In this document: piece after piece, positions 7,652 to 53,304 of the stretch
How the letters are laid out: each line of letters opens with the position of its first letter
Numbering within the stretch: position 1 is the first letter of the stretch
Source: Rhizaria sp. SCN 62-66
Taxonomy: Eukaryota
Assembly: GCA_001724265.1 (NCBI GenBank)
Contig: MEDY01000196.1
Coordinates: forward strand, 1 to 53,833
Reading direction: 5' to 3'
DNA: 53,833 nucleotides
Program-made: the position numbers and the translations under genes
Notes under the pieces: generated by a model
What the model was told of the DNA's origin: nothing
Databases searched by the model: none
Seen by the model: the letters and a program-made list of their open reading frames with translations, nothing else

Positions 7652-7689
<38 letters not shown>

Positions 7690-8504
7690 TCGGTGTTGGC
7701 GCCGGGGATCGAGGCTGGCAGCAGCGGCTGCGTGGGCCGCACCAGCGGCAGCGGGTTGTGCGCCAGCGCGGTCGCCATCGCCCCGCGTGCCACGGCGTCC
7801 GTGGAGGCGAAAACCCCGGCGCTGCTGAGCGCGAACTGCTGCTGCTGTTGCTGTTGTTGCTGGAGGCTGCGCCCATGGCGCGCGCGCGCCTGTTTGCGCA
7901 GCGCACGCTCCCGCTTCGCATCATCGTCGCCGCTGCTCTCCGCGTCGCTGGCGCCGTCGCTGCCCGCGCTTGCGTCCGCGTCCGGGTCCACGTCGTCTCT
8001 GTGGCCGGCGGCAAGCGCCGACGCGAGCAGCGCCGGGTCGGGCTCGAGCAGGCCAAACGGCCCCGGCCCGGTCAGACTGTGCTCTGCGAAGACACCGCCG
8101 AGGTCATCATTGGTATCATGACTGTGACTGTAGGGCCGGCTCGCCTACCGCGGTTGCTGCAGCTACATTTGGCTTTGATTCCCCTGTTGCTGCTGGAGCA
8201 GCGGCTTGTACGCCAGCGGCTGCGGCCCCGCCCCGGCGGCGCTGAGCGCGGCGGCGAGCGCGGGCGAGCCGGGCACGGGCGTACGCGCGAGTGTGCGCCT
8301 CAGCGCGCGCTCGGAGGTCTTGATCACGGGGGTGAGGGGAAGCGCCGCACCGGCGCCGCGGGCCGTGATGGGGCCCGCGCGCGGCGGCCCCGTGGCCCAG
8401 GCCGCCTGGCCGAGCGGGAGCGACGAGATCAGCGAAGCCGAGGGGCGGCGCGCGCTGCCACCGCGGGAGGTGTGGGGGCGAGAGAAGCCAAGGAGCGGGG
8501 ACGG

Positions 8505-8546
<42 letters not shown>

Positions 8547-18964: not shown

Positions 18965-18996
<32 letters not shown>

Positions 18997-21230: not shown

Positions 21231-21367
21231 GGTGGCCGGGGAACTGAGCGGTGAGGGGAACTCACGACCAGGACTGCTTGGGGTGGCGCGCACTGAAGGC
21301 TGTTGCGAGGGGAGGGAAAGGCCTGCGAGGGACGCGCCCTAAGTGTACGGGGAGGAAGTAAACCCAA

Positions 21368-23564: not shown

Positions 23565-26500
23565 ATGCCTCACTCCCCAGACGGCCCGCCCATGACGTCC
23601 ATTGTCGCCTCTGGCGAGCTGCTTCGCCAGCTGGCAAACACGGTCTCCGCGCGCCGCGTCTCCGGCCTGGCCGCCGAGCCCGCAATGGGGTACCTGCTGG
23701 GCACGCCCGACGCGGCCCTGCTCGCGGAGGACCCCGTGGAGGGCTACTCCTTCGTCGACGTGCCCTGCGCGCCGGGCGCGCTCGTTGCCAGCGGCGCGCT
23801 GATGCTGCCGCCCTCGGTGCGCGGCGGCGTGCACCTGCACTGCGGCCCCATCGGCTCGCTCGCATCCCTGCGCCTCGCCGCGCCCGACGGCGTGCCCTTC
23901 CTGGGCGTTCTCGTCATCGCGCCAGACGCGGCGGCCGCTGACCTGGCCGCGCCACCGCCCGCGGCCACCTTCGCCGCCTTTGCGCGCGCCGCCGTGCTCG
24001 ACTCGGCCGGCGCGCTGCCCTTCTGGCGCGAAAACCTCCGCGTGCTCCGCGGCAGCGGCGCCACCGAGGCCACCGCCGCCGCCGCCCCGCTTGTCGTCCT
24101 CGTCGCCATCCCCGCGCCCGCCGCGCTGCTCGGCCCCGCTTCTACCGCTGGCGCCGCTGATATTGCGGACAAGGACGGCGTGGTGCGCGTGGGCGTGGCG
24201 GGGCAGCGCGCGTTCGACCCCGCCTATCTGCGCGCATTCGTCCTCCACGGAGACTGCGACTGCACCGCTGACGATGACGCTGATGCTGATGACGAGGGCG
24301 AGGGCCAGGGTCTGGTGGTCGGCGACGACGACGACGGCGTGGTCCGCGCGCTTGCGCGTCCGCTGCGCGTCAAGCTCGGCACCAGCGACGTCGACACGTA
24401 CAGCAATAACGATAATGACAACGCCAACAAGAGCATCAACAGTGATCCCCTGACGAGTCGCCTGGATGTGTCACGCTTTGTCGCCTTTACGCGCACGCTC
24501 ACGCTGCGCATACCACCCTCGCTGTCGTCGGAACACATGGCGGCTTACCTTAAGTCGCAGCTCGACACAGCGCCCGCACTCACGTGCGTCTCCAGCAACA
24601 CGGACGACAATGATGACGATGACGACGAAGACGGCGAGGACAATGCTACGAATGAGAGCTCTCGTCACCGTACCACAGCCGCCGCGTGCGTGCTTACGTC
24701 TCCCACCGGCGTGTTCGAGCCTCTGCTGCTCCCGTCCCCGTCTCCGCCCACCGTCGACACGATCGCCGCCGCCGCCGCCGCTGCCGCTGCTGCTTCTGGT
24801 GGCAATGAGGCCAGCCCTCTGTTGACTGTGCCCGTGACCGTCGTCTCCCAGTCCGCCCCTGTGTCCGCGCCCCTGCCCCTCGTCCTCTCCGTCGACACCA
24901 ACGACGCCGACAAGAACGCCGCCGCCAAGAGTTCTGCCGCCGCAGCCGCCGCCTCGGCCGCCGCCGCGGCGCTCCCGGCCCCCGTGGCGCGGCCCTGCAC
25001 GGTGACGCTTGCGGCCGTCTGCGTCTTTTCACGCGCGGTGCATGGCGCGCTCACCGCGGACCGCGTCGCCGTCCGTCTCGCGTGCGCGCTCCGCGAACAG
25101 GCGCAGCTGCTTCTCTCGATGCTTGCCGCGCCCGCGCTGCTGGCCCACGAGACGGGGCTCTTCTCGCGCGGCGTCGGCGCTGATGCCTTCCCGGCCGCCG
25201 CGCTGACCACGCCCGCGCTCGCCGCCGCCGCCGCGCCGCCGCTGTCGGCCGCCGCGGCCGCCGCGGCCGCCGACGCCGCCGCCGCCCTGTCCGGCGCCAG
25301 CGGTGGTGCCAGTGCGGGCACCGGCGAGGTGAGCGCGGAGGTGCGCCGGCTGATGCAGCGGCTGCAGCGCTGGGTGAGCCCCTTCCCGCTGGCGCTGCCC
25401 GCTGAGGCCCGGGCCGCGTTCTCCGCCGCCGAAGCTGCGTACCCGTCGTACCTGCTCCCCGTGGCCTACACATTCACACAGCTCCCCGCCCCAGGCTCTG
25501 TCTCGAGCGCAACTAGCGGCAACAGCAGCGGCAGCACCAGCACGGCTGTGAACAGGAGTGCGTCGCTGTGGGCGTTCGCGCCCCTCGTCGCACTGCCGCA
25601 CTTCGACCTCGCACTGCCGGCCGACGCGTCCGCCTCGTCCGCCGCGGCGGGGGGCAGCAATACGGACCCCGTGTTCTCCCCGCTCGCCGCGGCGACGGCG
25701 CGCGCCCTCCGCGCGGCGGCCACCGACGCAGTGGCGCTCGCGCTCGCGCGCGGACGGCCCGTCGCGGACTCGCTGACTCCGCTCCCGCTGCCCGCGGCCG
25801 CGGCGGCCATCAAGACCCACGCGATGCCGTCCCCCGGCGCCGATGTAGGGGCCCTGTTGCCGCCGCGCGCGTTGGCCGCGGCGCGCACCGAGCAGCTGCG
25901 CGCCGCGCTGGCGTGGCGGCTGGGCACCGAGACCGCCTGCGGGACCTCCGCCGTGCCCATCGCCGCGCCTGTCGCAACTACGATGTAGAGTGGCTTCGGG
26001 GCGAACCACGGCTTCGGCTTCAGCTTCGGCGGCGCGGGCGAGAGTGCCATCGGGGCGGGCGCGGGCGGGCGGCTGGTCAACGTGCATCTGTCCGTGCCCA
26101 CGGTTACTTTCGCGCAGAAGACAAACGCCAGCAGCAGTAGCAGCAGCAGGAAGAGCTCCGCCAGTACCAACGACGACGGCTTCGGCTTCAACGATCTCGA
26201 CGGCGACGACGGCGCTAACGACGGCGACTCGACTCCCTCTGCTGCGAGCGGCGCTGTGATTGTCGCGCAGGTGTCGGGGCTGAGCGAGTACTGCCATTAC
26301 GGCCAAGACGGGCTCGCGGACAAGGGATGGGGCTGCGCCTACCGCGTCCTGCAGACGATCCTGACGTGGTACCGGCTGCAGGGCTTCCTCTCCGAGCGCG
26401 CGCACCCGCACCTGGCGGGCCGCGGCGGCTCCTTTGCGGGCGTGCCGTCGCACCGCGCGCTGCAGAGCGCGCTGGTGGCCGCGGGCGACAAGCCCGCCTC

Positions 26501-27499: not shown

Positions 27500-29188
27500 A
27501 TGCCTCGCCCGGCCTCCAAGCAACAGGCAGACTCTTCCCTGGCACGAAAAAGCCCAGCTCGGAAGTCGCGCCCGACTGCGTTTTCCCGCGACAACATCTC
27601 CTCTTCCTCAGAGTCCGGCGACGACTCCGAGCTTGAGGTGGTGAGCGTTGTCTCCGTTTCCAACTCGCCATCTCTCGCCCCCAATTCACCCGACGCTGGC
27701 CCCACAGCCAAGCGTGCTCGCACCGCACGGCCTAGCAAGCTTGACCTCAGCGCGCCGCACGAGGGCAGCGCCCGCGCTGGCGCTTCCTCCAGCGACAACG
27801 ATGACTAGAACGACGACGTCGCGCTCAAGTCTCACAGCTCCAGCTCAAAGGATGCCGCTGCTGCCGCTGCCGCTGCCGCCGGTGCTGACGGTAGCGGTAG
27901 CGGTGCTACGTCTGGCCGCGGCGGCCGCGGGCGCCCATCAGGGCGCGGCGGCAGCAGCGGGGCGGTCTCGCGCGGCCGAGCTGACTTCGCCGACACGGGC
28001 GCTATCGCCGGTGGTGGCGACTTGGACAGCGGGCGCGGGCGCGTGCGCGGGCGTGGGCGTGGCCGCGGCCGTGGTGCCAGCACCGGCGTGACACGCGGTG
28101 CGAGCGTCTCAACCCGCGGTGGCGGCGCGGTCGGCCGCGGCGGCCGTGGCAGAGGCAGAGGCCGCGGCCGCGGAGCCAGTGCCAGTGCCAGCGCTGGCGT
28201 GAGCGCCCGGAGCAAGAGAACCTCCACCGCGAGAGCCAGTAGCAGCGACGACGGCGGCGACGGTGGCGACGAGAGCGACGCGGACGACTTTGGCGATGAC
28301 GACGCGCCGGTCGTGGACGCTTCCTCCGGCTCTGGCTCTGGCTCTGGCTCCGGCGGGAGCCCCTCAGAGAGAGATGATGAAAATGAGGCCGTCGCCGTTG
28401 TCGAGACCCCCGTTGTGAAGCGCCGTGGCCGCCCTCCGGGGAGCGGCTCTAAGAGCAAGGGCAGCGGCCAGGCGCCTGCTGCGGGCACTCCTGCCTCCAT
28501 CGCTTCCAAGAACGGCGCCAGCGCGGCCGCGGGCGCGCCAAGAGGCGCCGCGCAGTCCGACTCGCTCATCGCGGCGGCGCAGCACGCGCGCGCGCTGCTG
28601 GCGGCCTCCCGCGACGGGCCCGGCAATCAGCGCGCGTCGGCGGCGGCCGAGGCGGTTTTCGTGCGCGCCACCAGAGAGGCCGCTGTCCGGCGCGAGCAGA
28701 TGCCCGTCGGCGCAGGCCGCCATACCTTCTGCCTCATCTCGAGCGCGCCCGCGGCCGTGCTCGCGGCCGACGCCGCCGCGATGGCCGCGCAGCTCGCGCG
28801 CGCCACCAAGGCCGCCGGCGAGGCCGCCGCGGCCGCGGCTGCGGCTACTGCCGTCGTCGCGGCGGCCGAGCGAGTGCGCGCTCCGGGCGGCAGGGGAGGC
28901 ACGGGCGCGCTTGAAAGCGACCCGGACCTGGTCCGCGTCAGGGACAGGGCTGCGGCGGCCGTGGCGGCCGCGGTCAAAGCGCAGGCGGGTGTGACGACTG
29001 CGGTGCGCGGCCTGGCCGCGGCCGGCGATCGCGGTGCGTGTGCCAGCTGCGGCGCCGAGACCAGCTACGTGTGCCGTGTCTGCTCGCTGATGGTCAGGCG
29101 GCCCGTGCCGTACTGCCTCTTGGGCGCGCAGGGTTGCTGCGCGACCGCGCACCAGATCCACTGCTTCTTGCTTGGTCTCGACGGCTGA
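27500..29188 (+). CDS. ~562-aa probable DNA-binding protein with RG/RGG repeats, an AT-hook and a C-terminal Cys/His zinc ribbon; 1 in-frame TAG
   Basis: ORFs 27494..27808 and 28022..29188 share a frame across TAG 27806-08. AT-hook KRRGRPP at 28418-28438. CASCGAETSYVCRVC..VPYC..GCCATAH at ~29039-29152. Ends in TGA. Confidence 0.75.
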
Positions 29189-32233: not shown

Positions 32234-35200
32234 TTACATCTGCGGCACTACGCCCTCGTTGTCGCCATAACCGGGCCACGCAACGTGGACATACCCGCGC
32301 TCGACGACCGGGACCGCCGCAGAGGCCGGGAACACCGGCGCCGGCTCGCCTTTGACCGTGGGCGAGTTGACCTTGTTGTCACTGGCATGAACACCATCAG
32401 TGATGTGAGAGATCGCGGTCGCGCTTGTCCCGTTGTTCACAGAGGGACTGGGAGCAGCCGCAGGCGATGACAACGCTCCCCACATCATCGCGGCCACCGC
32501 GGCGCCCATGTCCCGCGGCTTGACCGCGCCCCCCACAGCCACACCGCTGCCGTTGCCGCCGCTGCTGCTGTTGTTGCTGTTGCTGTTGTTGCTAAGGGAA
32601 TCCGCCGTAGTCGCAGCGGTGTGAGAGGCGGGAGCGAGGCGGACAATGCCGCCGGCGAGAGCAGACCCGCCCACGCAACCGCTGTCGCTGATGTCAGCAA
32701 CGGCAGCGGCGGCGGCGTCGGGGAGACGCGCGCGCGGCATCAGAAGCGCATACATGCTGCTGTCTGTGTTCACCGCAGTCCGCACGTTGACACTCGCGCT
32801 CGCGCTCGCACTCTGCGAGTGCAGCTGTGGGTCGGCGTGCGTCGGCGAGTGCGAGGGCGGAGTGGCCTCGGGGGCCATCGTCGTCTCCAGCGGCATCAGC
32901 GCAGACCGGGACGGCAGCGACGACTGAGCCGGCAGAGCGAACTGAGCCATCGAGCCACTCACACTGGCGTTATTGTCCACCACAGTCGTAGCCGCCGCTG
33001 CCGTGTTGTCGCGAGGAGCGGCGGAGGTACTTAGAGCCTTGTAAGTAGGCGCGGTGTACGGGACGTCGGGCGCGTACGCAACAACACTCCTGCCGCCAGC
33101 GGCGCCCGCGCGCGTCGCCACGGTTGCCGCGGCACTCACAGTGCTGGAGCTCACAGTGGCGGAGGTGTTTGAGGCGGGGAAAGCGCGCGCGCGGACGGGG
33201 GTAGGGGCAGTCACGGCCGCCATGCTCGACACGGCCGGCGGCAGCGCGGCATGAGGCGGTGGTTTGACGCTGTAGCCAAGCTTGCGGAGCAGCAACAGCG
33301 CCGAGGCGGCCTCGGCGCCCGCGCGCGCAACGTCGGCCGCCACCTCGGCCGCGGTCTGCACCGCGCCAAAGCCACTGGCGCTGGCACTGGCGCTGGCGCT
33401 GGCACTTGCAGGAGATTCAGCGGGAGCACCTGTCCCACTCGCACTGGGGGCGGCGGGGGGGATGGCGTTCGCGGCCGGGGGAGCGGCGACGGGCGACTGC
33501 GAGGCCGGCGGCACGCGCGCGCGGTAGCGGCCGGGCGTCACCGGAGCACACTCGGCCTGCTGCGACTATGATTGCGAGGGTGGCTGGGTCTGCTGGGCCT
33601 GCGAGTGGGCGGGTGGGCTCGCGCGCACCGGCGAGAGAGGTGGCGACTGCGCGCGCGACAGCGGCGGCGACTGCGCCCCAGAGAAGAGCGACCGCGGCGG
33701 CGACGAGGCCGAGATCAGCGTCGCGGGACGCAGCAGTAGCACTGGGCCCGCGCTCTCGTAGCCGCAGCCGTCGCCGCCACAGCCAGTTGTCGCAGCGCTG
33801 CGGGCGACGCTGGCTCTGACGGCGGCGACCGCGGCGGCAGTGGCGTTGCCGATGCTCGTGTTGTGGCCGTCGCCGCCGCCGAAAGCGTTTGTTGCGTGAG
33901 CGCTGCTACGGGCGGGCATGTGCGCCGCGGCGGCGGCCTTCGCTGCGGCAGCAACGGCAGGGTCGACGCCGCCCGCGGTGTAGCTGGCGTTCAGGCTCAT
34001 ACCCGTGTTCGTGTGAACATTAGCGTTGTTGTTGTTGACCGGCGTGGGGGCGCGACCGTGGGTTGACGCCAGCCCCGGGAGCGCCGGCCTCACCGACGAC
34101 GACGACGACGACAATGATGATGACATGTGCGGACCAATACCACTAGCACCAGTCGCGGCAGCCGCGGTGGCGGCGGTGGCGGCGGCGTAGGCGGCGGCGT
34201 AAACCGAGGCCGACACCGCGGGGCCCGCGTACGCAGGTACGGGCGCCGGCGGTAAGTGCCTCTGCAGAGGCTGCTGTTGCACATGCTGTTGCTGGCGGCG
34301 GAGCGCGGCTGCCGCCTCGGTGGCGTGCGCGGGCGCGGCCGTGAAGGGCGGCATGTGACGCGCCGCCGCGAGCGCCGGGGACAGCAGCGGCAGAGCCACG
34401 CGCGTCAGGACGTCGCCGCTGATGCCGCTCGCCACGGGCGGCGGCGGCGGCGCCAGCAGCACGGGCGCGGCGACCGAGCGCACGGTGGCCGACACCGGCG
34501 CGGGCGCTGTGTGAGCTGCTGCGGCGGCGGCGGTGGCGTGGGGGCCGGAGGCGGCGTGCCAGGCCAGCCAGGCGGGCAGGCTGTCGGGGCGGTGGACCGG
34601 GTGGCTCCAGTCAACTGCAAACACAGGCGCTGCCGCTGCAGCTGAGGCTGGGACTGACTGGGCGACTGCGGGAGCAGGAGCGAATGCGGGCGCCTGACTG
34701 TGGGCCGAGTGACTGTAAGCAGAGTGACCGTGGGCAGCAGTGGCGACGGCGGCAGGGTGACTGGAGGCAGTGGGCACAGCGGGGGCGTGCGAATAGCTGG
34801 CGTTAGCGTCTGTCAGTTGCGCTGCAAACTGCGCGCTTTGCGGGACTAACGGCGTGTACTGCGTCTGGAACGCCGAGTTGGACTGCTGCATCACAGCAGG
34901 CGTCTGCTTGAGCTGTTGTGTGAGATTCACAGCAGAAGGTGCAGCCGCCGGAGCAGCGTCAGTGTAGTGATAGTGCTGGTGGACTGCAGGCTGAGCGGCG
35001 GCCGCCGCCTTGGCGTGGGCCCACCGCTCCCGCATGCTCTCTGCGGGGCTCAGGATCATATTCACGGTGTTGGCCGCACCTTTTGCACCGTCACCGCGAC
35101 CGGCACCGAGCAGAGTGTTGCTGCCATAGCCACTGTATATGTTTCGGTACGCGTTGCCGTTGCCGCCGTAGGGCGTCGCCGCGGTGACCGCCGTGCCCGT

Positions 35201-37886: not shown

Positions 37887-40800
37887 ATGTCGCATAACTC
37901 CAATCCCCCCGGTTATAACCTCTCAGAGGGCGCACCTGCCGGCGGTGTGAGCACGGACCCATCGTCGACCAACACCAGCAACAACTACAGTGACGATATC
38001 GGCGCGCATGCCGGCGCCACGACCTCAGCAACGACCGCCGTCGCCGCGCCCCGCTCCATGGCCGCGTCCGCCCTTAGCGCGATTGCCCGCGTGCTGGCGT
38101 CGCTGCTGCGCCGCAGCCCCTTGGTTGCCGCGCGCGTTGCGGGTACGACGGCGGCCGCGGTCGCTGTTCTGGCGCTCGCCGTCCAACTCGTCCTGCGCTC
38201 GCGCCGGCTCACCGCGCACGTCATCTACCTGAACTGGCTGCACTTCCCCTGGCTGGACTTTGCGCGACCCGAGCGCGCGTCGTGCTTCGGCTTCTTCCCT
38301 GGGCTGCCCGCGACGCGCTTCGTGCCCGCGCTTTCGCCTTACACAGCCAACGCCGTGCCGTGCTGGGTCACTGCGCCCGCGCCACGGACGCTGCGCGTGC
38401 TCGCAGCAGGCGCGGCCAGCGACAGTAACATCAATAGCAACAGCTATAGCGTTAGCAACAACAAGAGCGACGACGAAGGCGAGACTTGCAACAAGTTCGC
38501 GAGTGACACTGCGAGTGCTTCGACTCCACCGTCGCAGTCCCAGTCCTAGTCGCTCCCCCGGTCGACTGTGCTGTCGATCCCGTGGGCGAGCGACCCCGAC
38601 CGGCCCTTACCGGCCCCCGAGCACCTCTTTGCGGACCCCTTAGACCGGCCCGTGGTCGTCTACTTACACGGCGTCTGCTCGCACCGGGCAGAGATGCACC
38701 GCTCGCTGCTGTACACATTCCTCTCCGCGCCCCACGCGGCCGCGGTTGTGCCCAAGCCCTTTACACAGGCGCAGTCGGAGTCGGAGTCGGAGTTGCGTTA
38801 TGATGCGGAGACTGAGTATGCGGAGACGGCTGCTCAGAGGGGGCCGTTGCAGCGGTGTCCGGCCCCCTTCGCCTTCCCTCCCACTGGCGTCCCCTCGACT
38901 GCTAACCACAACATCAGTAACGCTTACCAGGCAGCGCCGCCTGCGGTCTCCGCGCCCACAGACAGCGACAAGAGAGAGGCCGCCCAGGCGCTGGCGCAGT
39001 CGCTGGCCGTGCTCCGCGCCGGCTTCTGGGCCCTGCCCGCCAGGCTCTCGGGCGTCTTCGCCCCGCACGCCACCGCGGTGCCCGTGGAGGCGCCGAACGC
39101 GTTCGTGGTGTCGCTTGACTACCGCGGCTTCGGCGACAACACGCACTCGCGTCGCGCCTGGCTCCAGGGCCGCGCGCAGGACTACAATGCGCGCGCGCAC
39201 ACGGCGCGGCCCGACGGAGACGACGGTGAAGACGACGACGAGGGGGACTCTGCTGATGCGACCACAAACACTGCACATATGAAGAGCGCGAGCGCCGCAG
39301 CGGAAGAGCAAGATCTGTGTTTCAGCGACTATTTCAACCCTCCGATTGCGCAGCCGCGCTCTTCACCGTCACAGAGCGACAGCTGCGCCTTCACCGCGAC
39401 TGCTACGAAGGACCGCGCCGACTTGGCGCCCGTGGGCCCCGAGCGCGCCCCGTTCACGGCCGCGGGCTTTGTGCCGCCGCCGCGGCGCCAGCGTGCGGGT
39501 CTGGCGGTCCCGGCGCCGCTGTCGCACGCGCGCGCGCGGGCGCTATGGGGGCGCAGCCCCATGTTCGACCCGCGGCTGCTGTGGCCGCGCAGCCCCGCTG
39601 CTGGACGCTCTGCGGGTCGTAACGCCGGTTACGCTGCGGAGTCCTCAGCTGAGGGTGCTAAGACTGAGAGCGACAGCGGTGCTGGTGCAGGCTTCGCGGT
39701 CCCGCTCGGCGGGCGCGACGGCGGACGCTCCCCCACTGCCATCGCGGCCGCCGCGGCCACGGTGGCGACCGCAAAGCCGGTCCCGTGGTTTGTCGCAGCC
39801 CCGCTGGCGGCGCTGGCGGCGGCCGCGAGCGTGCTGCTGCCGCCGTTGCGCGCTGCCCTCTCGGCTAACTCGGTTCCCGCCCCGCTTCGCACCTCAACCA
39901 ACGCGCACGCACACGCACACGCGGGCGCGAGCACAGTGACTGCGACGGCGACGGCGACCGCGACGGTGACGTCAATCGTGACCGCGACGGCGGACGCGAC
40001 TGGGGCAGTTACGCAGACGCAGACGCAGACCGCGCAGACCGTGACCGTGACCGCGACAGCGGACGCGGCCGTCCCGTCCCCGGGCTCCGAGGCGCCGACC
40101 CCCGCCGGCCTACTATGGGACGCGCTCGCGGTGTGGGACTGGCTGACGGTGACGTGCCGCGTGCCGCCGCACCGTATCGTGCTGGCGTCGCACTCGCTGG
40201 GCACGGCCGTGGCGGCCAAGCTAGTCGACGCGCTGGCCGAGCGGGCGCACGCCCTCGCTGACCCCGCGCACCCGGGACACGCGTGCGCGTGCAAACACTG
40301 CGTGGCGCCCCGCTTTACGCAAAGCAACGCAGCAGCAACAGCAGCGACGCCGGCGAGCACTGAGGTCGCAACACCGCAGGCGTTGGTGTCGGTCGAGAGC
40401 TTGCGCTCCGACGGTGTGATCACCACGCAGTCGGCCTACACGCGCTGGGCGGCGGCCGAGCTGCTGCCCGCGGGCGTGGTGCTGGAGGCGCCTCTGCTGT
40501 CGCTATCCTCGGTGGTGCGCGACATGCCGCTGCTGCAGCCGTTGCTGGCGCTGAACAATCCATTCCCGTTCAAGATCAAGCTTCCCGCGCCGCCGAAGCT
40601 GCCGCCGCTGCCGCCGCTGCCCTCGCTACCGCGTCTGCCCTCGCTCGCGCGGCTCCAGCGCCTCTCGGGGCTGTCGTCGCTGTCCTCGCTGCCGGCGTTG
40701 CCGTCGCTGGGGCAGATCCGGCGCAGGCTGCGGCGGCAGCCGACGCTCACGCCGGCCAGCACGAGCGGCCGCCCGCGGGGCGACGGTGCTGCCGGCGCCG

Positions 40801-43800: not shown

Positions 43801-44897
43801 CTAGTTCAGGCGCCGATGCTGTTGCTGCCGCTGCTGCTGCTGGTGCCGCAGTGACACCCCCGATGCACACGCGCGCGGTGCTGACCTCCACCGTCGCCAC
43901 GGGCGGCGCCGGGCGCGACACGGTGCTGTCGCTGCTGTCGACCCCGCCCGCGCGGGCGTTTGCGCGCGGCACAGGCGCGCTCCCTGCGCCGACAGTGCCC
44001 GGCTTCGACGGGAGCAGCAACCGCAGCGGCAGCGTCGACATCGACGGGAGTGCTGGCTGTGATGGCACCAAGGTCTTCCTCGCGGCCGGTCTGGCGTCGC
44101 CCCCGTCCTCGCCGTCTCTGTCGTCGTCGGCGTGGCCGTCGCTCACCGCACTCTCAGCGCTGCCCGTGCCCCCGCCATCGCTCGCGATCGCTGCTACAGA
44201 TGCTTCCGACGGCGACGACACGGCCGAGGCGTTTGCATTCACTCCTGTTGTCAATACGACAACCGCCGCGGCGGCCGCCTCCGCGGCGTCTGCCGCAGCC
44301 GCCGCTGCCGCTGTAGCCCAGGCTGAGGCGGACGCCGCCGCCGCCGCCGCGTACGCCGCGGAGGCCGCCGCCGCGGCCGCTGGGTCAGTGACGTTCCACC
44401 CTCAGCTGCCCTCGGTGCTCGAGTCGACCGCGGCGCAGTGGGAGCTGCCCGGCGAGGGTGGGGGCTCGGTCCGCGCTGCCGCCGCCGTCACGCTGCCCGC
44501 CGCGCTGCCGCCCATCTTGCGCGCCATGGGCCTGCCCGTCGCCGTTGCCGCGATCTCTGACTGCAATGGCGAGGCTGGTGGTACGTCGAGTAGTGAGTCT
44601 AATGAGTCGCTGTTCCAGAGCTGCGTGCCCGCGGCGACGGCGCGGCACGAGCAGCGGCGCGTGCTGCGGCTGGGCGGGGGCGCGGCGGTGACCGTGGACG
44701 CTGCGGTGCCCTTCGCGGCGCGGCCCATGTGGGGCGGCGCACTGTCCAGGGCCGCAGCCAGGGGCGCCGTGGCGTTCGTGAGCGTCGCCGAGTCGGACCA
44801 CAACGAGCTGGTGTGCTACAGCTCGACCAGGATTGCGCTGTCGGCGTTCATCTTGGCGCATACTGATCCGCTTAAACAGCAGCAGAAACAACTTTAA
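37887..44897 (+). CDS. ABHD12-like alpha/beta hydrolase, ~2336 aa, inflated by very large low-complexity insertions; 1 in-frame TAG
   Basis: A TM-like segment and VIYLNWLHFP come before TAG 38547-49. After it, in ABHD12/13 order: VVYLHGVCSHRAEMHRSLLYTFLS, SLDYRGFGD, PTPAGLLWDALAVWDWL, ASHSLGTAVA (Ser 40194), VLEAP, LVLHGGRDGVVP (Asp 41499), SDHNEL (His 44799). Ends TAA TAA. Confidence 0.82.
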
Positions 44898-45164
44898 TAA
44901 CATCTTTTTACTGTGTCCCGACGACAGCAAGATCATGTGACGGTGAAGTTCATTCATCGAATCTTGTTTTACATTAGTTTCTATCATTACAATAGTGAGC
45001 TCAATATAATTGTGAGTAAAAATAAAGATTTATTATCATGACGTTAATTTTAGAGAATTATAATTTTTTAAAGATCATTTAAATTGGTTGAGATTCGTTG
45101 CATTTTTTATTGTATTTTCAGTGTTTTATTCTTGCCGTTACAAAGTTTGATGGTCCAAAGAAGT

Positions 45165-48100
45165 TTAAACCAGAATATCCCTCCGCGGCCGACGCACGCT
45201 TCCAGTTACCTTATCCTTCTCTGCGCGCATTCTTTCCAGCATCTTGTGCAACTCAGCGTCGACATTCTCATATCTGCTGCGCCGCCCGCTTGCCAGCGCG
45301 CGCGAGATCGACCGCTCCAGAGCGCGCGCGCGTTGACGGGCACGTGCGCGTTCAATCTTTTCACGGCGCTGCGCTATGCGCTGCAGCCGCGCTTCTGTGC
45401 TTGCATGGCGGCGGGGGTGCGGACCCCTGTAACGCGTTGTCCCAACGTTGCGATCCACGGGCACGCTTTCGATGCGAGGACTTGGACGACGATCAACAGT
45501 GAGGTCGTCCTAGTCAGCAGCCATTACTGTGCGTCTCACAGTTCGTGTCACTCCGCCACTGCTGTGGGCGCGCGTGTTATCATTGCCACGGACGTTTTCA
45601 GTGCCAACGTCGACTGGTGCGGTCGTTCCGCGAGGGCGGCGGAGCGCGCGCACCTCGTTGCGGCGCTCCAAGAGCACTCGGCGCGACTCGGCAGCAGCGT
45701 CGGCGGCGGATGTGAAACGCAGCTCAATATTTTGTCCGCGCCATGTACCTGTGCGTGTACGTGGCAGTCCCCTGCTTGCTCCTGAAACAGCGTCTGAGAA
45801 TGCACTCGTTGCAGTGATTGGACTTGTACCGGGCACAATTCTCAGCGAGACAGAGCGACTCGATGACGCACTTTCTAGCTCACGCTCAAGCGCTCTACGT
45901 CTCATCACAGTTGCGAGCGCACTATTACGGGTCGCTCGAGAACTTGAGCTGACGGGGTCAGCCTAAGGAGCGCGGTGAGCGCGAGGTGCGCGCTGCCGCC
46001 TTGCTGCTGCTGCTGCTGTTCCAGCGGGAAGCGAGGCACGACTGATAGGAGGCCGCGACGTTGTGGCCATTGTTGTTGAGACTGCGGGTGTTACAGTTAA
46101 TGTAGATGCCACCGATGAAGTATCTGGAGTTGTAAATATGACAGGAAGTGCGGTGCCACGCGTACGAGAAGCTGACGGTTGTGCCTATGTCCGGGGGCTT
46201 GTCGGGCTTGCACGACCCACACGAGCTGCAGAAGTCACACTTGTTATAGCTGATGCGGCTGTCGCATTTACAGGTGCATTGATAGGGCACACACCGTTAT
46301 TCTCATCGTCTTCTGCATCTTCTGCATCTTCTGCTGGGTCTGCTGCTGCATGGCATACGTCCCCGTTAGGAGACACTTCAGTCGCAGGCACATTCGGAGT
46401 CGGAGTCCGTGATGTCTCGCCCGATCCAGTTGCTGTGGAGCTAGCGTTGGTGCTACGACCGGTACTGGAGCTAGAGCTTGCCGGGGGAGTCACTGAAGGC
46501 CGTGGCGTGGTTGCGGGTTTCTCAGCAGCCGCAGCTGCAGCAGCGGCTGCAGCCGCGCGGCTCCGGAGACGCTCACAGTGCGCATGCCTCTGCAGCTCGC
46601 GGCGCCACTGCCTGCGTCCAGCACGGCCACCGGGGAGATACGTGCCGTCGGCAGCGCGGTTGCGCGATGACGGCGGCAGTGGACATTTGTCAACGTCTTT
46701 ACGCTTCTCTTTCTCTTTCTCTTTCTCCTTCTCGCTTGACTTATCTTTTTGTTTCTCCTTCTTCTCCTTGTCCAAAGCAATGTTAATTGACACATTTGCC
46801 AGTGGTGTATGGCGAGATGGGGGCACCGTCGGAGCAGAGACTGCTGCGGCGGGAACCGACACAACTGCTGTTGCAGTGATGACGACAGCAGCTGGTGCAG
46901 CCGATGGTTGCGAACGTGGTGAGGATGACACCGCTGCATTGCTAGTGTTGCTGTTACTTGTACTGATTACTGCGGTACGAGGCACCTACATTGTAAACGT
47001 GCGCATTGCTCGCCCACGTCGAGGCTGCATTGCGCCACTGTTTGCCCTGCGCACAGTGCGAAAGGGTGGTTGCGTATTAGGCCTTAAATTGCGGCTGTTG
47101 CTGTAGTAAATCTGATGCGGCACATACGCACTCAGTGCATCGTAGAAGCGGCAACATCCACCCTTCACGAGGTTGGTCGGGGTTAAGCAGCACGTGCGCG
47201 CATTAGTCATTGCGTTTTGTAGTGCAAGCGTTGCAGCGTACCCGCTGCGCATTGCGTAAACCGCGTTCAACGCGTCTTGACTCGAGTACCCAAGTGACCG
47301 CAGCGCGAGCCGCACATCTAACGAGTTTAGCACATAATCAACACTGGAGGGAATTGTTGGGTAGTAGTATGGTTGAGGTTGCGGCTGCGGAGGTGGGGGC
47401 GGCGGAGGCCGGGGGCGTGGGTGGGGCTGCGGGCGAGGCCTGCGGTCATCGGGGCGCGGTTGCGGCGGGCGCGGCTGTGGCTGCGGGGGACTTGGCTGAG
47501 GTGGACGCGGCTGCGGCGGATTTGGCTGTGGGGGATTTGGCTGCGGAGGGTTCGGCCGAGGCGGATTTGGCTGAGGCGGTCGCGGTTGTGGCCGTGGTGG
47601 GCGGCGGTCATCAGGACGCGGGCGCGGCTGCGGCGGACGTGGCTGCGGCGGGCGGGGCTGCGGGCGCGGACGGCGGTCGCCAGAATGATGGTGGCGATCG
47701 TCACCCAAAGGACTGCGGTCAGCGACTAAATTGTTTGAAACCTCACTGCTCACAGTTGCTTGCGCAGAGGTAACACTTTGAGGCAAGGCAACATTATCAT
47801 TGAGGTCTGAGTTGTCGCTTGCAGGAGAACTCCTGTTGTTGTCAGCGTCACGATTGGTAATGTTGCTAGTGTCCGTGATGGCACTATCAGTAAAGTGACC
47901 ATAGCTGATCGTATTACCGTTGGAGATGTCACCACTTGTATCAAACAACAGGCCACTGTGCTCGTTATTAGAGCGATAATCATATGTGTTCTCATTGCCA
48001 CTAATAATATCGTCTCGAAGTGACATCACACGAACTTCACGCCCGCGGCTGCGCGCATGTTCCGGTGCCTCAGAGCGACCGTGAGCATTGCTTGCACTCC

Positions 48101-50063
48101 CGCGCTCAGCATCTTTCGCAATCTTTTCGATCGCTGAGCTCAGTTGGCAGCACCCGCGGCGCACGCGCTTATTACGGTCGTTGCCGCAGCAGAAAGTTAG
48201 CGCGCGCCTGGCCTCACGCGCTTGACGCGACAGTGTAAGAGAGGGGTTGCGTTTCATCGCAATCAATGCTATGCGTGCGCGTGCAGGGTCAAGTCCGATT
48301 GCATTAAGTCCGGGAATCATACTCGGCGTTAGTATCGGTGATGCTCCGTGGACACCAGTTAAACCCGCTGCTAAGGCAGTTGAAATTGCCGACATGATTG
48401 ATGACGAGTCACGACCGCTACTATCAAGTAGGCTGATAAAATTTGGTCTTGAGCTAGACTACAAGGTACTAACCCGACGACCACGCGCCTTAAAGCGATC
48501 TATAGGAGCCCGCTCATCGCGCTTAGCGGCGCTTTCAAGAACCATAAGCAGGTTAGATGGGTTGGAGTCGGCGCGGAAACGATTCAAAAAGGAACCCTGC
48601 ATCGGAACAAGATACAACCACATCTGCTAAGGATTGTGCTATTTTTGATTGGTACTATGCATGGGCGCAGGCTTGAGGTTAGCGGAATCGGTTGCCGCCA
48701 TCCTGACCTTATTGCTGCCTGAACTTGTTGCAGGGCTAGTGGCAGCCGAGGTCAGCTTGTCTTTCGGCTTGTTTGTGGATGCAGTGCTTGCAGTCGGGGT
48801 TGTTGTCGTCGCTGAAGGTGGTACAGACGTTAATCGTGTTGCCCTCACTCGGGACCCACCACGTGTTTCAGCCTTGGGCTTACGCGTGCTTTCACTCTTG
48901 CTCTTGTCACTTTTACTGTTATCCTTGTTCTTGTTGATAGCGAAGTGACCACGAGCACCAAACGAGCCTTGTCCCGCAATAGCACCAGCTGGGTCATGCG
49001 CAAACTGCAGCGCTCTGCGCCCGCGCTCAATGTCCGCATTTTGCCTGCGCTTTACCTTCCGCGCCCGTCTCTCCTCAGCCGCAGTGATGGCCGCAGTCAG
49101 GTCGACGCCGCCGCTGCTGACGTGGCCACGGCTGGCGTGTCCGCCGAGCGCGGGCACGCGCGCGCCAGCGTCAACTGCGGCGGCGACAGCCACAGCGCGG
49201 GGCTCGGGCGCGGGAAGAAAGAGACGGCGCGCGAGCGTGCGGGCAGCGGCGGGGAGCGCAGAAAGCGACGGCAGCGAGATGTACTGCAGGAACCCACTCT
49301 TTTCGTTCCCGTCGCTGTTACGACCCGGGCGATAGCTCGCCGCGTCTGCCAAATCTAGCGCAGCACTTGCAGGGGCTGCGCGCGACGCAAATGCAACCGC
49401 AGCAAGTGTTGCTGATGGCGCCAAGACCAGTCGGCGCGCGTGGTATTCATTTGGCAAAATCGGTGTAAAGCCTGCTGTTGCGCACTTCGAGTGGCTCATC
49501 TTGAGATTTTTGTCATGAGCAGAGTTTGAAGCCTGCAGAGCGCAAAGACAGACTTCAGAGTTTGCAGGGCAAGCGCAAAACTCGTTGCACTTGGATTGGT
49601 ATACAGTGGGCGATGTGTGCTTTGTCGCTGCGACGGTGGCAGCAGCGGATACACTCGCGACGGGGGGACGCGTGCATCGGCCGTTTTTGCGACGATACGT
49701 GCCGCGCGGACATGCAAGTTGAGCAAGGTTAACATGAGAATGCGGCTTTGGGCGCGGCCCAGATGTAGCAGGCTTAGCAGGGTTCTTGGGAGGCGGCGGC
49801 TTCAATGCGCCTTGCGAGGGAGTAGGGGTGGAAGTCGGAGCAGTCGTTGTTCTGGCCTCCCTGGCTACAATGCAAGTGACAGCAAAAGATAGCGTGAGTC
49901 AAGTTATAAAAATAATAAGAAGAGTACTTCAATACACACTTACATGTTGCAACGTACTTGAAGTCGTTGAAGGGGCTGGCTTGGAGGCGTCTGTCGGTGG
50001 ACCCGAAAGCGCAAGCACAACTTGAAGTGCGAATGCGCACAACAAAAGGCGTAGCCACGCCAT
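45165..50063 (-). CDS. Putative secreted ~1601-aa Cys/Pro/Ser/Thr/Arg-rich protein, 2 exons (50063-49958, 49864-45165); 7 in-frame TAG codons
   Basis: Exon 1 encodes signal-peptide-like MAWLRLLLCAFALQVVLALS. ORFs 48639..49805, 46986..48395, 46185..46985, 45510..45908 and 45165..45464 are one frame broken only by TAG (48639, 48627, 48459, 46986, 46185, 45963, 45510). Terminal TAA at 45165 lies beside AT-rich DNA. Confidence 0.72.
47375..47680 (-). repeat. Imperfect 15-bp tandem repeat encoding (P-Q-P-R/N-P)n
   Basis: RPQPRPPQPRPPQPRPRPDDRRPPRPQPRPPQPNPPRPNPPQPNPPQPNPPQPRPPQPSPPQPQPRPPQPRPDDRRP in the translation. Confidence 0.9.
49865..49957 (-). other. Predicted intron (93 nt, phase 1) of the secreted-protein gene
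   Basis: A|GTACGT...TTGTAG|CC; AT-rich; joins the signal-peptide exon in frame (PSTTSTREARTT). A nearby GTAAGT donor would not keep the frame with this acceptor. Confidence 0.6.
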
Positions 50064-50460
50064 CTACAGAGAAGGGATTCAACAGAGTGGATAAATTGTC
50101 AATCCAATTTTATGCTTTGTAAGTCTAAGATAGTAAAATTCATTGTGTTATGACGAAGTGGCATATCGTGATGTCCAGTTCAAATTCTGTCACCTTCCTC
50201 TCGTTGCCCCCTTCGCTCACAGTCACAGGCTCTTGTCGTAAACCCAAAGATTAACTAAAACAGATCAATAGTGTATGCCCATGAACAGAATCACAGGTAA
50301 TCTTAACGGAAAACAAACTAAATCAAGTCTATCAAACTATCAAAATAAGCCTAGGGCATCACCTAATGTTCATATCACATCAGAATCTTGCCCTTGTCCT
50401 CCACACACAGAGGCTTCTTTCATAAATCCATGCAGGAGCTGCTTGCGCTAGTTTGCGAGC

Positions 50461-53304
50461 TCACCGCCAACGGCTGCGGTCGCCGACGCGGCGCACGTTC
50501 CCTGGCGCGGGCCCCGGCGGCGGCGCGGGCGCGGGGTTGCGGTTGTTGCCGTACGGCGAGCCCATGCCGCCCGCGTTATTGGCGTTGGCGTTGTTGCTGG
50601 GGTACTGCGGGCTGCCATAGTAGCCCCCCGCCCCCGTTGGCCGCGGCGGCACCGCGGGCGCGCGAGAGCCCGGGTAGCCGCCGTTGCCAGACGGGGGCTG
50701 GTACTGGCCGCTGCCGTTGCCGCCGCTGCCGTTGCCGTTGTTGTTGCCGTAGGCGTTGCCGCCGCGGATGGGGGTGTACTGTTGCTGCTGCTGCTGCTGC
50801 TGCTGCTGGAACGGGGTGTAGCCCCCGCTGCCGCTGCCGCTGTTGCTGTTGCTGTCGTACCCGCCCACGCCGCGCTGGTTCGCGTTGCCGGCGCCGGCGC
50901 GGACGGCGGGCGAGCCGATGGGCGGCAGCGACGCGGGCACAGCGCCACCGCCGCTGCCATAGCCGCTGCCGCTGCTCTGCTGCTGCTGCCCCGCGCCGTA
51001 GCCGCTGTAGCCGCGTTGGCCCGCGCCAGCGCTCTCAGCGCCGCTGCCGTACGCGCCGCCGTCAAGCCCAAGCGCGGCGGCGACGCCCGCACCCGCGGCG
51101 TGGAAGCGTGAGGCCGACCGGCTCAGGTGCAGGGGGGGCTCATTGACGCCGCTGCCGGCGCTGCTGCTGCTGCTGCTGCTGACCGCGGGTGCGGCGTCCG
51201 AGGGCGCGCCGCGGCGATAGGGCGACGGCGGGTACCTCTGCTGCTGCTGCTGATGTTGTTGTTGTTGCTGGAGCTGCTGCTGGCGCATGTCGTGCGCCTG
51301 CTGGTACACTGGGGCCGCGGCGGCGCCGTTGTAGGCCCCGCTGCCGTAGCCGCCGCCGCCGTTGTCCGCGGGCCCGGGCGTGGGGTGTTCGCTGCCGTAG
51401 GGCGCGCCACGGTGCTGCTGCTGCGCGAGGCGGCGCTCGCGGTCCAGCGCTCGCTCGCGCAGGTTCTGCTCGCGGATCCGCGCCAGCGCAGACTCGCGCT
51501 CCAGCCGCTGCGCCTCGCGGTCGCGGTCGGCAGCGCCAGCGCCGAGCTGCTGCTGTTGCTGCTGCTGGAGGCCGGCGCGTTGGGCGTGGGCCGCGGCGGC
51601 GGCGGCGGCCTGGGCCTGCGCACCGGCAAACACGCCGCCCTCGCCCGCTCCGCCCCGCTGCTGCTGCGGCGGCTGCTGTTGCTGTTGCTGGGAGGGCGGT
51701 GGCGGGACGGGGCGAGCCTGCGAGATTGGCGACGCGGCGGGCATGGGCACCCCGCGCTGCGGCACGGGCGGCTGCTGCTGCGGCTGCGGCTGGGCGAAGC
51801 GGTGCGGTGTATACTCCTGCTGCTGCTGCTGCAGTTGGGCCGAAGGGGGCTGCTGGTAGCCCGGGTTGCCGTAGCCCTCGCTGACGCCGTCGCGGGGAGA
51901 GCTGTTGCTCTTGGCCTCCGCCGCCGCCGCCGCTGCCGCACCAGCACCAGCGCCCGAGCCGCCGCGCGCGCTATCATCGCCGCTGCCGCTGCCAGTGGAG
52001 CCGCTGCTGCTGCCGGGAGCGTCGCCGGAGCCGCCCTTATCGCCGCCGCCGCCGTTGTTGAGCGAACGAGTGAGCAGCTCGACGTACTCGGGGTCGTGGT
52101 GCGGCGCGGCCAGGAAGCGCTTGACGTGCGCCTCAACGTAGGGCAGCCGCAGCATCTCGTGGATGGTGATGCGCCGCGTCTGCTGCTTGGTGAGCAGCAT
52201 ATCAACCAGGTCGCGTAGCGGCTTCGAGTAGGCCGTCGACAGTGGGCGGTGCTTGGTGTGGATGATGGCGTGGAGTAAGCCTTCCATCGACGTCGCGTCG
52301 AAGGGGTGACGCAGCGAGCAGAGCTGGTAGAGCACGACACCCAACGCCCACGAGTCGTTGCGGCCGTCGTAGGGCTTGTCCATGCAGATCTCGGGCGAGA
52401 GGTAATACGGCGTGCCGATACGCGTGCGCGCCTGCGCGAGGGTCCGCTCGAGCGACTTGGAGATGCCAAAGTCGCCGATTTTAACCTGGTTGCGGCGGTT
52501 CAGGAACACGTTCTCAGCCTTGACATCGCGGTGGATGATCTTGCGATCGTGCATGTGCTTGAGCGCCAGCGCCATCTGCACCATGTAGTACACGATCTGC
52601 TCCTCCGGGAAAGGCTTCCCGCGCCGATTTTTAATCAGGATCGAGAGGTCGCCGCCGTCGGCGTACTCCATTACGATGTACAACACGCGCCGCGTCTGGT
52701 TGTAGGCCTAGGGAGACCGGTCGAGCGAGAGGGAGTCAAGGAGATGATGCGTTGGTTTGAGTCAAGGACCAGGGGGTTTGAAAGTAAAACGTTAGTATTT
52801 GAGAAAGTGAGAATACGATCAGTCATGATAATACGTCTTGAGCAAATATCAAGTTATCATTGTTGTTCTAGACGTCATCGTCGTTGGTAGTTGGTGCGCG
52901 TATGTGTCTGGGCGTGTTGTGATCATACCTGCGTGGTCTTCTCGAACCACTCTCGGTAGCCAATGATGGCGGGGTGCGCAAGCTTAGCAAGGAAGCCGAC
53001 CTCCTTGAGCGCCTCCTTGCGGCCCTTTGCGCCTAGCGTGGTGATGTCGATTTCCTTCATTACGTATAGCTGTTGGTCGCGCAGGTCCTTGACCAGGTAC
53101 ACGCTGCCGAAGGAGCCCTAAGCAAGAACAAACACAAAAATACCACAGTCATGAGTATATAAGAGTAGAACACACGTGGGTGTTAAAGCGGAATCTGTTG
53201 CATATTCAGATATCGTGCGTTGCAGAGTGGATTGGGCTGTTCTGTGAGAGGAGAGCACTGACCTGACCGAGGCGCTTGACGCGCTCGTAGTTCTCAAGAC
53301 CCAT
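50461..53304 (-). CDS. NIMA-related kinase (NEK1/3/5-like), 3 exons (53304-53263, 53117-52929, 52707-50461), with a Gln/Gly-rich tail
   Basis: Spliced product MGLENYERVKRLGQ|GSFGSVYLVKD..YVMKEID..EALKEVGFLAKLAHPAIIGYREWF..|..LYIVMEYADGGDL..IIHRDVKAENVFL..KIGDFGISK..IGTPYYLSPEIC..DSWALG. Ends in TGA. Confidence 0.93.
52708..52928 (-). other. NEK intron 2 (221 nt, phase 0)
   Basis: CAG|GTATGA...TCTCCCTAG|GCC; splicing restores the kinase frame. Confidence 0.88.
53118..53262 (-). other. NEK intron 1 (145 nt, phase 0)
   Basis: CAG|GTCAGT...CTTGCTTAG|GGC; splicing rebuilds the glycine-rich loop GQGSFG. Confidence 0.92.

Follow-up and report, generated by a model that had tools for sequence, protein, structure and literature searches.

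The window, meaning the whole stretch of DNA analyzed, is 53,833 nt long. The target gene lies on its minus strand and is comprised of two exons. Exon 1 (49958..50063, 106 nt) starts with an ATG at 50063 and contains 35 codons plus one base. Its hydrophobic N-terminus was classed as signal-peptide-like on the basis of Kyte-Doolittle hydropathy (19-residue peak of 2.13 at residue 1). The intron (49865..49957, minus strand) is AT-rich, 93 nt long and bounded by GT..AG. Exon 2 (45165..49864, minus strand) is a single frame with seven in-frame TAGs, ending with a TAA at 45167-45165. The first base of this frame is two bases inside the range of the exon, and frame 1 counted from 49864 is the wrong frame. 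Splicing of exon 1 to exon 2 keeps the frame and gives a product of 1,601 residues, rich in A, R, S, P and T. An AATAAA (45125..45130, minus strand) was read from the sequence of the AT-rich 3' flank.

The seven TAGs, all on the minus strand, are numbered 1 to 7 and located at 48639..48641 (residue 444), 48627..48629 (residue 448), 48459..48461 (residue 504), 46986..46988 (residue 995), 46185..46187 (residue 1262), 45963..45965 (residue 1336) and 45510..45512 (residue 1487). They divide the target frame into stop-free pieces of 443, 3, 55, 490, 266, 73, 150 and 114 codons. The five pieces of more than 100 codons correspond to the five short ORFs that a sequence-only reading of this DNA had merged by readthrough. 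The open frame runs from 49898 to 45168 and holds 1,577 codons with seven TAG and no TAA or TGA, the stop counts being those of that reading. GC content is 0.58 compared to 0.70-0.74 in the remaining long frames of the window, confirming that the exon is less GC-rich than its neighbors. Chance TAA and TGA codons were indeed to be expected: the dinucleotide content predicts 33.5 against none observed (P(0) = 2.7e-15), and the five remaining frames over the gene contain 25-80 apiece. The probability that all seven stops would be TAG is 1.3e-4. The gene is split by standard-code annotation, which had been expected to miss it, with only fragments of 469 aa and 286 aa in the protein collection, each ending at a TAG. 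The exon had been put forward as the strongest single-locus evidence for recoding. It is the best in the window for TAG as a sense codon, but it is silent on which residue is inserted.

The exon joint 49864/49958 was found in contigs of X1 and X3, with the 93-nt intron removed and the frame kept, which bears out the proposed upstream exon, here signal-peptide-like. These are assembled contigs labelled cDNA; X1 and X3 are one sample and may hold DNA, and none of the contigs listed for X2, the sole true polyA run, crosses a TAG. Contigs of X1, X3 and X4 run across TAG 3 with no joint. Between 48400 and 48670, three contigs each differ from the window by one base that is counted but not itemized. 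Identical sequence was present at TAG 4 in X4, at TAG 5 in X1, X3 and X4, at TAG 6 in X3 and X4, and at TAG 7 in X4. Gaps in RNA cover, the small word share of X3 and the zero share of X5 were left out of the evidence. Thirty-four strain differences were found in the exon, 26 of them transitions. None creates a TAA or TGA in the target frame, compared to one or two in each of the five others. Fourteen differences are synonymous (about 10.5 expected) and 20 non-synonymous. This synonymous excess falls short of significance, and a frame on the opposite strand reaches 18. Protein-level constraint on the exon is weak.

No Pfam families were found in the target protein. A word-indexed search among shorter proteins returned the target's own two fragments alone, a HMMER search with the 490-codon middle piece returned proline-repeat matches and nothing else, and viral contigs searched with the protein gave no match. 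Within these searches the target is an orphan protein with no homologue found. A fold search returned generic helical hairpins (best Z 8.8, rmsd 4.7, 78 residues). Two helical modules were predicted, with a weak likeness to each other (E 0.04). Module 1 (48087..48290, minus strand) is modelled from its single sequence as a helical hairpin bearing two Cys-Cys pairs, with a pLDDT of about 65-73 across the hairpin. Module 2 (47100..47348, minus strand), folded on its own, is modelled as a RuvA-C/UBA-like three-helix start followed by a Cys-Cys hairpin (mean pLDDT 65.9); its match to RuvA_C (E 0.0017) is below the cut-off of that family. Pro/Gln/Arg-rich 15-nt repeats (47471..47663, minus strand) form an extended linker. 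The target is probably an ordinary expressed and spliced gene with a long, mostly disordered, secreted product. The models tentatively suggest, at somewhat less than even odds, an extracellular or surface scaffold in which two small disulfide-stapled helical modules are joined by long flexible linkers.

In-frame TAGs were also present elsewhere in the window. One (25986..25988, plus strand) precedes the Peptidase_C78 domain in a neighboring gene and another is located in an Asp-rich tract (27806..27808, plus strand). Ser/Gln tracts contain one each in a 1,739-codon frame (33566..33568, minus strand) and a 2,360-codon frame (38547..38549, plus strand). Two are contained in a Gln-rich stretch of an ankyrin gene (8145..8165, minus strand), and a third TAG of that gene starts at 4790.

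In a sample of about 0.9 Mb from the 34.9 Mb genome, 106 well-scoring coding runs were examined for the codon at which they end. TAA was found at 63 ends, TGA at 37 and TAG at six. Four of these six runs continue as an open frame and two of the TAGs are intronic, leaving no terminal TAG. The TAA-terminated genes include dyneins, HSP90 and eRF1. In-frame TAGs in conserved coding sequence were found in eRF1, a UBC6-type E2, four kinases and a ubiquitin domain. In the same 0.9 Mb sample TAG has a frequency of a few per 10,000 codons, mainly in weakly biased genes. No exonic TAG was found in the 39,194 codons of the dynein genes. In matches to dynein, kinesin, DEAD and HSP90 every TAG was either upstream or in an intron, and many of the TAGs inside other domain matches of the genome serve as intron acceptors. 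A nucleus in which UAG is a sense codon while UAA and UGA are stops is supported. The recoding proposed from the sequence is upheld both at the locus and genome-wide, by gene ends, in-domain TAGs, a tRNA with anticodon CUA and eRF1. The genes for the last two are located elsewhere in the genome, outside the window.

The eRF1 gene contains one in-frame TAG, which is the same in an independent metagenome contig. Among 117 homologues the TAG column is E in 107, D in nine, V in one and Q in none; the human residue is E107. The TAG exon has a GC3 of 0.90 and the codon directly after the TAG is its only AAA. Position 32, a Thr in all 116 homologues compared, is Ser here (T32S), and G57S and T58K were also found. 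NIKS, E55, L69, S70, Y125, C127 and F131 are unchanged. The nearest relative, P0005 (85%), keeps T32 and shares T58K; its residue at the TAG column is V, and this site is thus relaxed in the lineage. The contig of P0005 itself was absent from the matches of a metagenome scan made with that protein. Two further eRF1 search matches were read as a pelota-like paralogue.

One copy of a nuclear tRNA-CUA gene was found (G000:C84:76008-76080). It is 73 nt long with a 4-nt variable loop, scored 58 bits against RF00005, is followed by a T-run and is flanked by frames in the style of this genome. Its first five acceptor pairs are those of both genomic tRNA-Glu. Within the genome its identity is 47/73 to Glu-CUC and 37/73 to Glu-UUC, while the two tRNA-Gln reach 33 and 31. 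It carries U11-A24, U13-G22:A46 and A37 and is without base 47 (our own numbering); these are the Glu determinants described in E. coli (PMC9976931). U1-A72 and G73, features that are Gln-type in bacteria, are also present. By its sequence the body is of tRNA-Glu type. Bacterial tRNA-Glu were closer (54/73 and 50/73) than those of its own genome, and CUA tRNAs sharing its D arm were present in bacterial MAGs and viral contigs. The best 17 rows of a BLAST search against a phage collection comprised 10 tRNA-Glu, seven without a feature and no tRNA-Gln. No Gln-type CUA gene was found by the anticodon pattern, which can catch an intron-less CUA derivative of either tRNA-Gln; intron-bearing or unassembled genes are outside its reach.

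The best reading, and a likely one, is that UAG encodes Glu while UAA and UGA are stops. Summed Pfam bits were highest for E (461.8), followed by Q (460.1), K (459.6), D (457.5), S (455.0), Y (448.9), L (446.8) and W (444.4), the margin of E over Q being 1.7 bits from just seven conserved-domain TAG sites. Leu, Tyr and Trp are 13-17 bits below Glu at these sites. Kinase paralogues of the same genome from a codon-filtered scan, used so that antisense frames do not swamp the matches, have A in nine, E in eight, D in seven and Q in one at the L078 kinase TAG site (n = 38). Structure alignments of UBC6 and CaMK at the TAG column gave D/S and Y/A and were not decisive. Leu was considered because of the Val of P0005 at the eRF1 column and the exLh precedent, and was rejected as it is 15 bits below E and the tRNA is without a long variable arm.

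Gln at UAG, with UAA and UGA as stops, is the alternative that survives best, although it is unlikely; such a code would resemble NCBI table 15 and that of Iotanema spirale. It would need GlnRS to charge the Glu-bodied tRNA, or a Gln-type tRNA-CUA to have been missed. The flanks of 33 exonic TAGs resemble those of CAG codons (P 0.26) and differ from GAG and GAA flanks (0/5,000 draws). Three TAGs are found in polyQ tracts, which hold just 13 Glu codons, one ubiquitin copy has a TAG at a position that is CAG in the paralogues, and UAR codons are most often reassigned to Gln (PMC11687900). CAG to TAG is itself a transition, however, and transitions dominate the strain differences, so Gln-context TAGs would be expected under Glu too. 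Three TAGs are also contained in strongly acidic tracts with 207 Glu and 19 Gln codons, an argument that favors Glu at a 4-of-6 threshold and not at 3-of-6. If UAG were Gln, TAG would account for 3/22 Gln codons in the acidic tracts compared to 3/777 in polyQ. The absence of Q from the eRF1 column and the Glu type of the sole CUA tRNA found also stand against Gln. An early lean to Gln from contexts in the window was weakened by these two results.

Ambiguous decoding, in which GluRS and GlnRS charge the one tRNA-CUA and a mixture of Glu and Gln is tolerated where either fits, is slightly less probable again. The occurrence of TAG in both polyQ and acidic tracts and its absence from dynein exons would agree with such a mixture. 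In E. coli a tRNA-Glu(CUA) inserted 59% Glu and 17% Gln, but an engineered human tRNA-Glu(CUA) inserted about 95% Glu (both PMC12204705), and the strong GC3 bias and the presence of just one tRNA gene also account for the rarity of UAG. Leaky suppression, with UAG still a working stop and partial readthrough giving a ladder of shorter products, is very improbable. It would fit the single tRNA-CUA copy, the milder nature of T32S compared to the T32G of Iotanema and the great rarity of TAG in highly biased genes. Against it, none of about 100 genes ends at TAG, seven serial TAGs are kept across strains with no TAA or TGA arising, and a TAG interrupts domain 1 of the sole eRF1 gene found. That the target is an artefact, whether as a pseudogene, through sequencing errors or because the TAGs are 3' splice sites of unrecognized introns, is scarcely credible, for although in-domain TAGs elsewhere are often intron acceptors and the exon is weakly constrained, the 80 nt upstream of the seven TAGs have a GC of 0.51-0.70 (verified acceptors 0.31-0.41 in five of six and 0.55 in one), four TAGs are unchanged in contigs of other samples with no joint at any, and stops arise among strain differences in every frame except this one.

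The target gene looks broken because the nucleus uses a changed code. Under the Glu reading, the tRNA-CUA with its tRNA-Glu body would be expressed, charged by GluRS and pair with UAG and not UAA. Thr32 of eRF1 has a structural role in contacting the third-position G of UAG (PMC5304391), and the T32S substitution would remove that contact. UAG is gone from gene ends and occurs within genes at low frequency in the 0.9 Mb sampled, where Glu would most likely be inserted. An extended version, which is unlikely, is a non-ciliate nucleus with UAG as Glu in which a bacterial or phage-type suppressor tRNA was acquired horizontally and the eRF1 UAG may act as a feedback sensor. As eRF1 carries its own UAG, residual UAG termination would cut eRF1 synthesis. 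The tRNA-CUA comparisons covered own-genome, bacterial MAG and viral/phage tRNAs; its D arm could possibly be a plain retention of the ancestral eukaryotic D arm instead of a transfer.

The organism is an uncultured flagellated protist. It recurs in wastewater and activated-sludge runs and should therefore be obtainable. The lineage is probably Cercozoa. In an HSP90 tree the query was placed within a clade of 13 sequences (support 0.997). The C-terminal motif resembles that of Mataza sp. D1, and rows labelled Euplotes, Ploeotia and Noccaea resemble it as well. The ubiquitin genes have an extra Met-Ser ahead of the usual start, with no monomer-monomer junction in the sequences seen; an amino-acid insertion at polyubiquitin junctions is a trait described in PMC6133090 and compared for Cercozoa/Sainouroidea. 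Rosculus vilicus was a misfit, with 37.7% GC and no flagella (PMC10770858).

Nuclear codes that separate UAG from UAA are very rare. The published UAG-only nuclear recodings found have Leu, Gln or Ser, and Glu was found just where UAA is recoded too. UAG as Glu with UAA as stop would therefore, if true, constitute a new table. With Gln as the residue the organism would still be another independent non-ciliate case, and one for which the genome, the tRNA-CUA gene and the eRF1 allele are available. Thr32 has been proposed as the key eRF1 residue (PMC5304391), and since P0005 keeps T32 and shares T58K the order of events is testable. Standard pipelines break the genes of this organism into fragments.

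Peritrich ciliates and Blastocrithidia (UAR = Glu) also have Glu at UAG but recode both UAA and UAG, whereas UAA ends most genes here. Oligohymenophorea sp. PL0344 (UAA = Lys, UAG = Glu; PMC10553269) likewise reads UAG with a Glu-like tRNA-CUA. UAA is also sense in PL0344 and UGA its sole stop; here UAA is the main stop, ending 63 of 100 TAA/TGA-ended runs. UAG is abundant in PL0344 (10,160 Pfam-aligned codons) with ten tRNA-CUA genes, while here it is rare with one gene. Phyllopharyngean ciliates (UAG = Leu or Gln) and Scotinosphaera (UAG = Ser) share UAA as preferred stop (PMC11687900); the residue differs and no tie of this GC-rich genome to ciliates was seen. Release-factor expression is described as dependent on stop readthrough in the autoregulation of Mimivirus/Megavirus (PMC3521657) and in the plant eRF1 circuit (PMC5397192). 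Compared to those circuits, the putative regulation here would concern a single UAG within the frame of a cellular eRF1, in a UAG-recoding genome. Iotanema spirale (UAG = Gln) and exLh (Rhizaria, Sainouroidea; UAG = Leu) are alike in recoding UAG alone (PMC5304391), with UAA and UGA kept as stops in both. Thr32 is changed in Iotanema too, as T32G compared to T32S with G57S and T58K here. Compared to exLh, Leu is 15 bits down here, the tRNA variable arm is short, and eRF1 L69 is kept (L69A in exLh). exLh is a cercozoan, as the organism here may be as well. The tRNA-CUA was just predicted in the exLh and Iotanema paper (PMC5304391), while here the gene is identified.

On the minus strand of the window, the frame 49898 to 45168 runs for 1,577 codons, in which TAG occurs seven times and TAA and TGA are absent. 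The frame closes with a TAA at 45167-45165, in agreement with the single frame of about 4.7 kb described in the sequence-only reading. The GC content is 0.58 compared to 0.70-0.74 in the window's other long frames, the lower value having also been noticed there. From local composition (dinucleotide model) 33.5 TAA and TGA codons were expected in the frame, P(0) = 2.7e-15, and the probability of all seven random stops being TAG was 1.3e-4. The remaining five reading frames over the target contained 25 to 80 TAA and TGA codons. TAG was the sole stop type interrupting other long frames of the window, in one case upstream of a Peptidase_C78 domain. The target locus is a real gene.

The window also contained an SMC1-like gene at 16613-21338, in three long frames with introns between them (SMC_N, hinge, SMC_N). 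Very long Ala/Ser-rich low-complexity frames were seen at 37815-44894, 32237-37453 and 3084-10397. Alpha/beta-hydrolase motifs appeared by eye to be scattered over 2,360 codons of the first, with no Pfam match. A dispersed repeat near the contig start (398-766) was similar to part of another numbered locus, L023.

Four public sequencing runs (X1 to X4), each as assembled contigs, were compared with window positions 44800-50500. X1 and X3 represent one sample, labelled as cDNA, which may include DNA. The GT..AG intron at 49865-49957 was absent from their contigs. Its removal places the 106-nt exon at 50063-49958 in frame, as had been proposed for a signal-peptide exon, and yields a product of 1,601 residues with a hydrophobic N-terminus. 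No splice joint was seen at any of the seven TAGs in contigs of the compared runs, and the upstream AT-rich tract typical of most real acceptors was missing there. X4, approximately 1% divergent, spanned all seven TAGs; four were unchanged among the differences listed, and the other three lay in one contig carrying one difference outside those listed. Pieces of the polyA run X2 mapped to the gene, and among those listed none crossed a TAG. The strain differences listed for exon 2 (49864-45165; n = 34) included 14 synonymous, where about 10.5 were expected, and 20 non-synonymous changes, none of which created TAA or TGA in the frame. The frame of exon 2 is kept under weak constraint.

The public protein collection holds the gene as two fragments, both stopping at TAG; standard-code annotation does miss the whole gene, as foreseen. 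No homologues were found in Pfam, among the shorter entries of the protein collection, in viral contigs or by HMMER with the middle piece, which matched proline repeats only, making the protein an orphan. In a single-sequence model most of the middle piece was disordered (mean pLDDT 47.7); it included two helical modules containing two Cys-Cys pairs each. The product is a predicted secreted or surface scaffold.

The source assembly is eukaryotic, 34.9 Mb in size, and encodes IFT46, SMC and many dynein heavy chains. The whole analysis drew on approximately 0.96 Mb, of which about 0.9 Mb served to count gene ends. Well-scoring coding runs (n = 106) ended at TAA in 63 cases, TGA in 37 and TAG in six. 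Four of the six TAG ends continued as open frame and two were intronic, leaving none truly terminal. Exonic TAGs were located inside eRF1, a UBC6-type E2, four kinase domains and a ubiquitin domain. The recoding read from the sequence alone has support across the sampled genome as well as at the target locus. TAG frequency was 56 in 191,117 filtered codons, some upstream of start codons, and no exonic TAG was found in 39,194 codons of dynein genes. Genome-wide UAG reassignment is real, and that UAG is a sense codon in this organism, whatever the residue, is close to certain.

At G000:C63:103370-103699 the eRF1 gene has an in-frame TAG at the codon matching human E107, a column containing E 107, D 9, V 1 and Q 0 in homologues. 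An independent metagenome contig was 100% identical over 1,626 nt of the locus and kept the TAG. The protein has S at position 32 (T in 116/116 homologues), S at 57 (G in 117/117) and K at 58 (T in 116/117, the exception being the closest relative, P0005, at 85% identity). According to the available text of PMC5304391, the third-position G of UAG is bonded by Thr32, and Iotanema eRF1 is T32G; that of PMC9161772 gives GTS as intact in standard-code relatives of Iotanema. P0005 shares T58K but retains T32 and G57; judged by sequence, this might possibly be an earlier stage of code change. The AAA directly after the TAG is the only one among the exon's 16 Lys codons. By analogy with giant-virus release factors, which feed back on their own synthesis (PMC3521657, in part), a TAG in so biased an exon could serve as an autoregulatory sensor.

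UAG is likely read as glutamate. Pfam scores summed over seven sites ranked E first (461.8), followed by Q 460.1, K 459.6, D 457.5, S 455.0, Y 448.9, L 446.8 and W 444.4. At one kinase-domain TAG (L078) 38 paralogues included A 9, E 8, D 7 and Q 1; at another (L106) the two closest paralogues had D and a further one had A. Three TAGs lay within strongly acidic tracts (207 Glu and 19 Gln codons). Decoding as glutamine is unlikely, fitting poorly to these tracts and to the eRF1 column, although three TAGs lay in polyQ tracts (774 Gln and 13 Glu codons), one ubiquitin copy had TAG in place of the CAG of its paralogues, and 33 exonic TAGs chosen by hand had flanks resembling those of CAG (P 0.26) and not GAG/GAA (0/5,000 draws). 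Gln contexts would be tolerable in unconstrained tracts even with UAG as Glu, CAG to TAG being a transition; transitions were the commonest strain change (26 of the 34 listed in exon 2). The argument from transitions and acidic tracts stands at a 4-of-6 threshold and fails at 3-of-6. Mixed Glu/Gln decoding, which would accommodate both kinds of tract, is a little less probable still. A leaky stop is very improbable, and an artefact behind the TAGs of the target frame is scarcely credible.

A pattern search found one tRNA gene with anticodon CUA (G000:C84:76008-76080; L050:1501-1573; RF00005 58 bits). A T-run comes after the gene, and the frames on either side are in the source genome's style. 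The tRNA list is incomplete because 63 of 506 candidates were scored in the RF00005 search. The first five acceptor pairs of the CUA tRNA are common to both genomic tRNA-Glu and its T stem to Glu-CUC. It was identical to Glu-CUC at 47/73 positions, to Glu-UUC at 37 and to the tRNA-Gln genes at 33 and 31; overall identity alone is not decisive, as an earlier gapped comparison gave Glu-CUC 47, Thr 47, His 46 and Met 46. The determinants of Glu identity that the available text of PMC9976931 gives for E. coli are present in it. Among the best 17 phage-collection BLAST rows 10 were annotated tRNA-Glu and none Gln. The D and T arms were nearer bacterial tRNA-Glu (Paenarthrobacter plasmid 54/73, Salmonella 50/73) than the genome's own. 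A D-arm scan, which selects for likeness because its pattern was built from this tRNA, called 72 tRNAs, 11 of them CUA: four bacterial MAG loci (L195, L196, L198, L200) and seven occurrences in viral contigs (L216, L218, L276, L288, L308). The tRNA may be of bacterial or phage origin. The CUA tRNA of L276 lies within a 21-tRNA array, where coding density rises from 0.31 to 0.50 on TAG readthrough. A long frame at L174 (G000:C681:1512-4727), with an internal duplication, a TAG-bearing ubiquitin domain and a match to Peptidase_S74 (E 2e-9), has the look of a viral or other mobile element with captured host ubiquitin.

The source organism is somewhat favoured to be a cercozoan. HSP90 fell in a clade of 13 sequences (support 0.997), with a relative (P0137/P0248) at 92% identity. 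Its C-terminal motif was common to Mataza sp. D1 (Cercozoa) and to rows labelled Euplotes, Ploeotia and Noccaea (P0205, P0240, P0236: ciliate, euglenid, plant), which could stem from cercozoan contamination of the transcriptomes concerned. The 18S rDNA (G000:C706:4459-8903) is very divergent. It contains four insertions that look group-I-like by eye, and a homing endonuclease (PF05551, E 1e-14) is encoded in the first. The ubiquitin genes (L172, L175, L176, L179, L185, L186) are divergent, with an extra Met-Ser at the start. They either stand alone, with a three-residue tail, or are fused to L40, and none of them showed a polyubiquitin junction. A polyubiquitin insertion in Rhizaria and extreme 18S in sainouroid flagellates are described in the accessible part of PMC6133090.

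A literature search with little reach into subscription journals found no report of UAG as Glu with UAA as stop and none of another rhizarian with a changed code besides the one already described, and the phrase 'genetic code' does not occur in the main text of a Cercozoa transcriptome paper (PMC12930898). In the available text of PMC11687900, UAG-only nuclear recoding is to Leu (exLh, three ciliate MAGs), Gln (Iotanema, Hartmannula, Trochilia) or Ser (Scotinosphaera), and UAG as Glu is listed only with UAA as Lys or as UAR = Glu. The case with UAA = Lys is PL0344 (PMC10553269, in part). UAG as Glu with UAA and UGA as stops is probably a new nuclear code variant.
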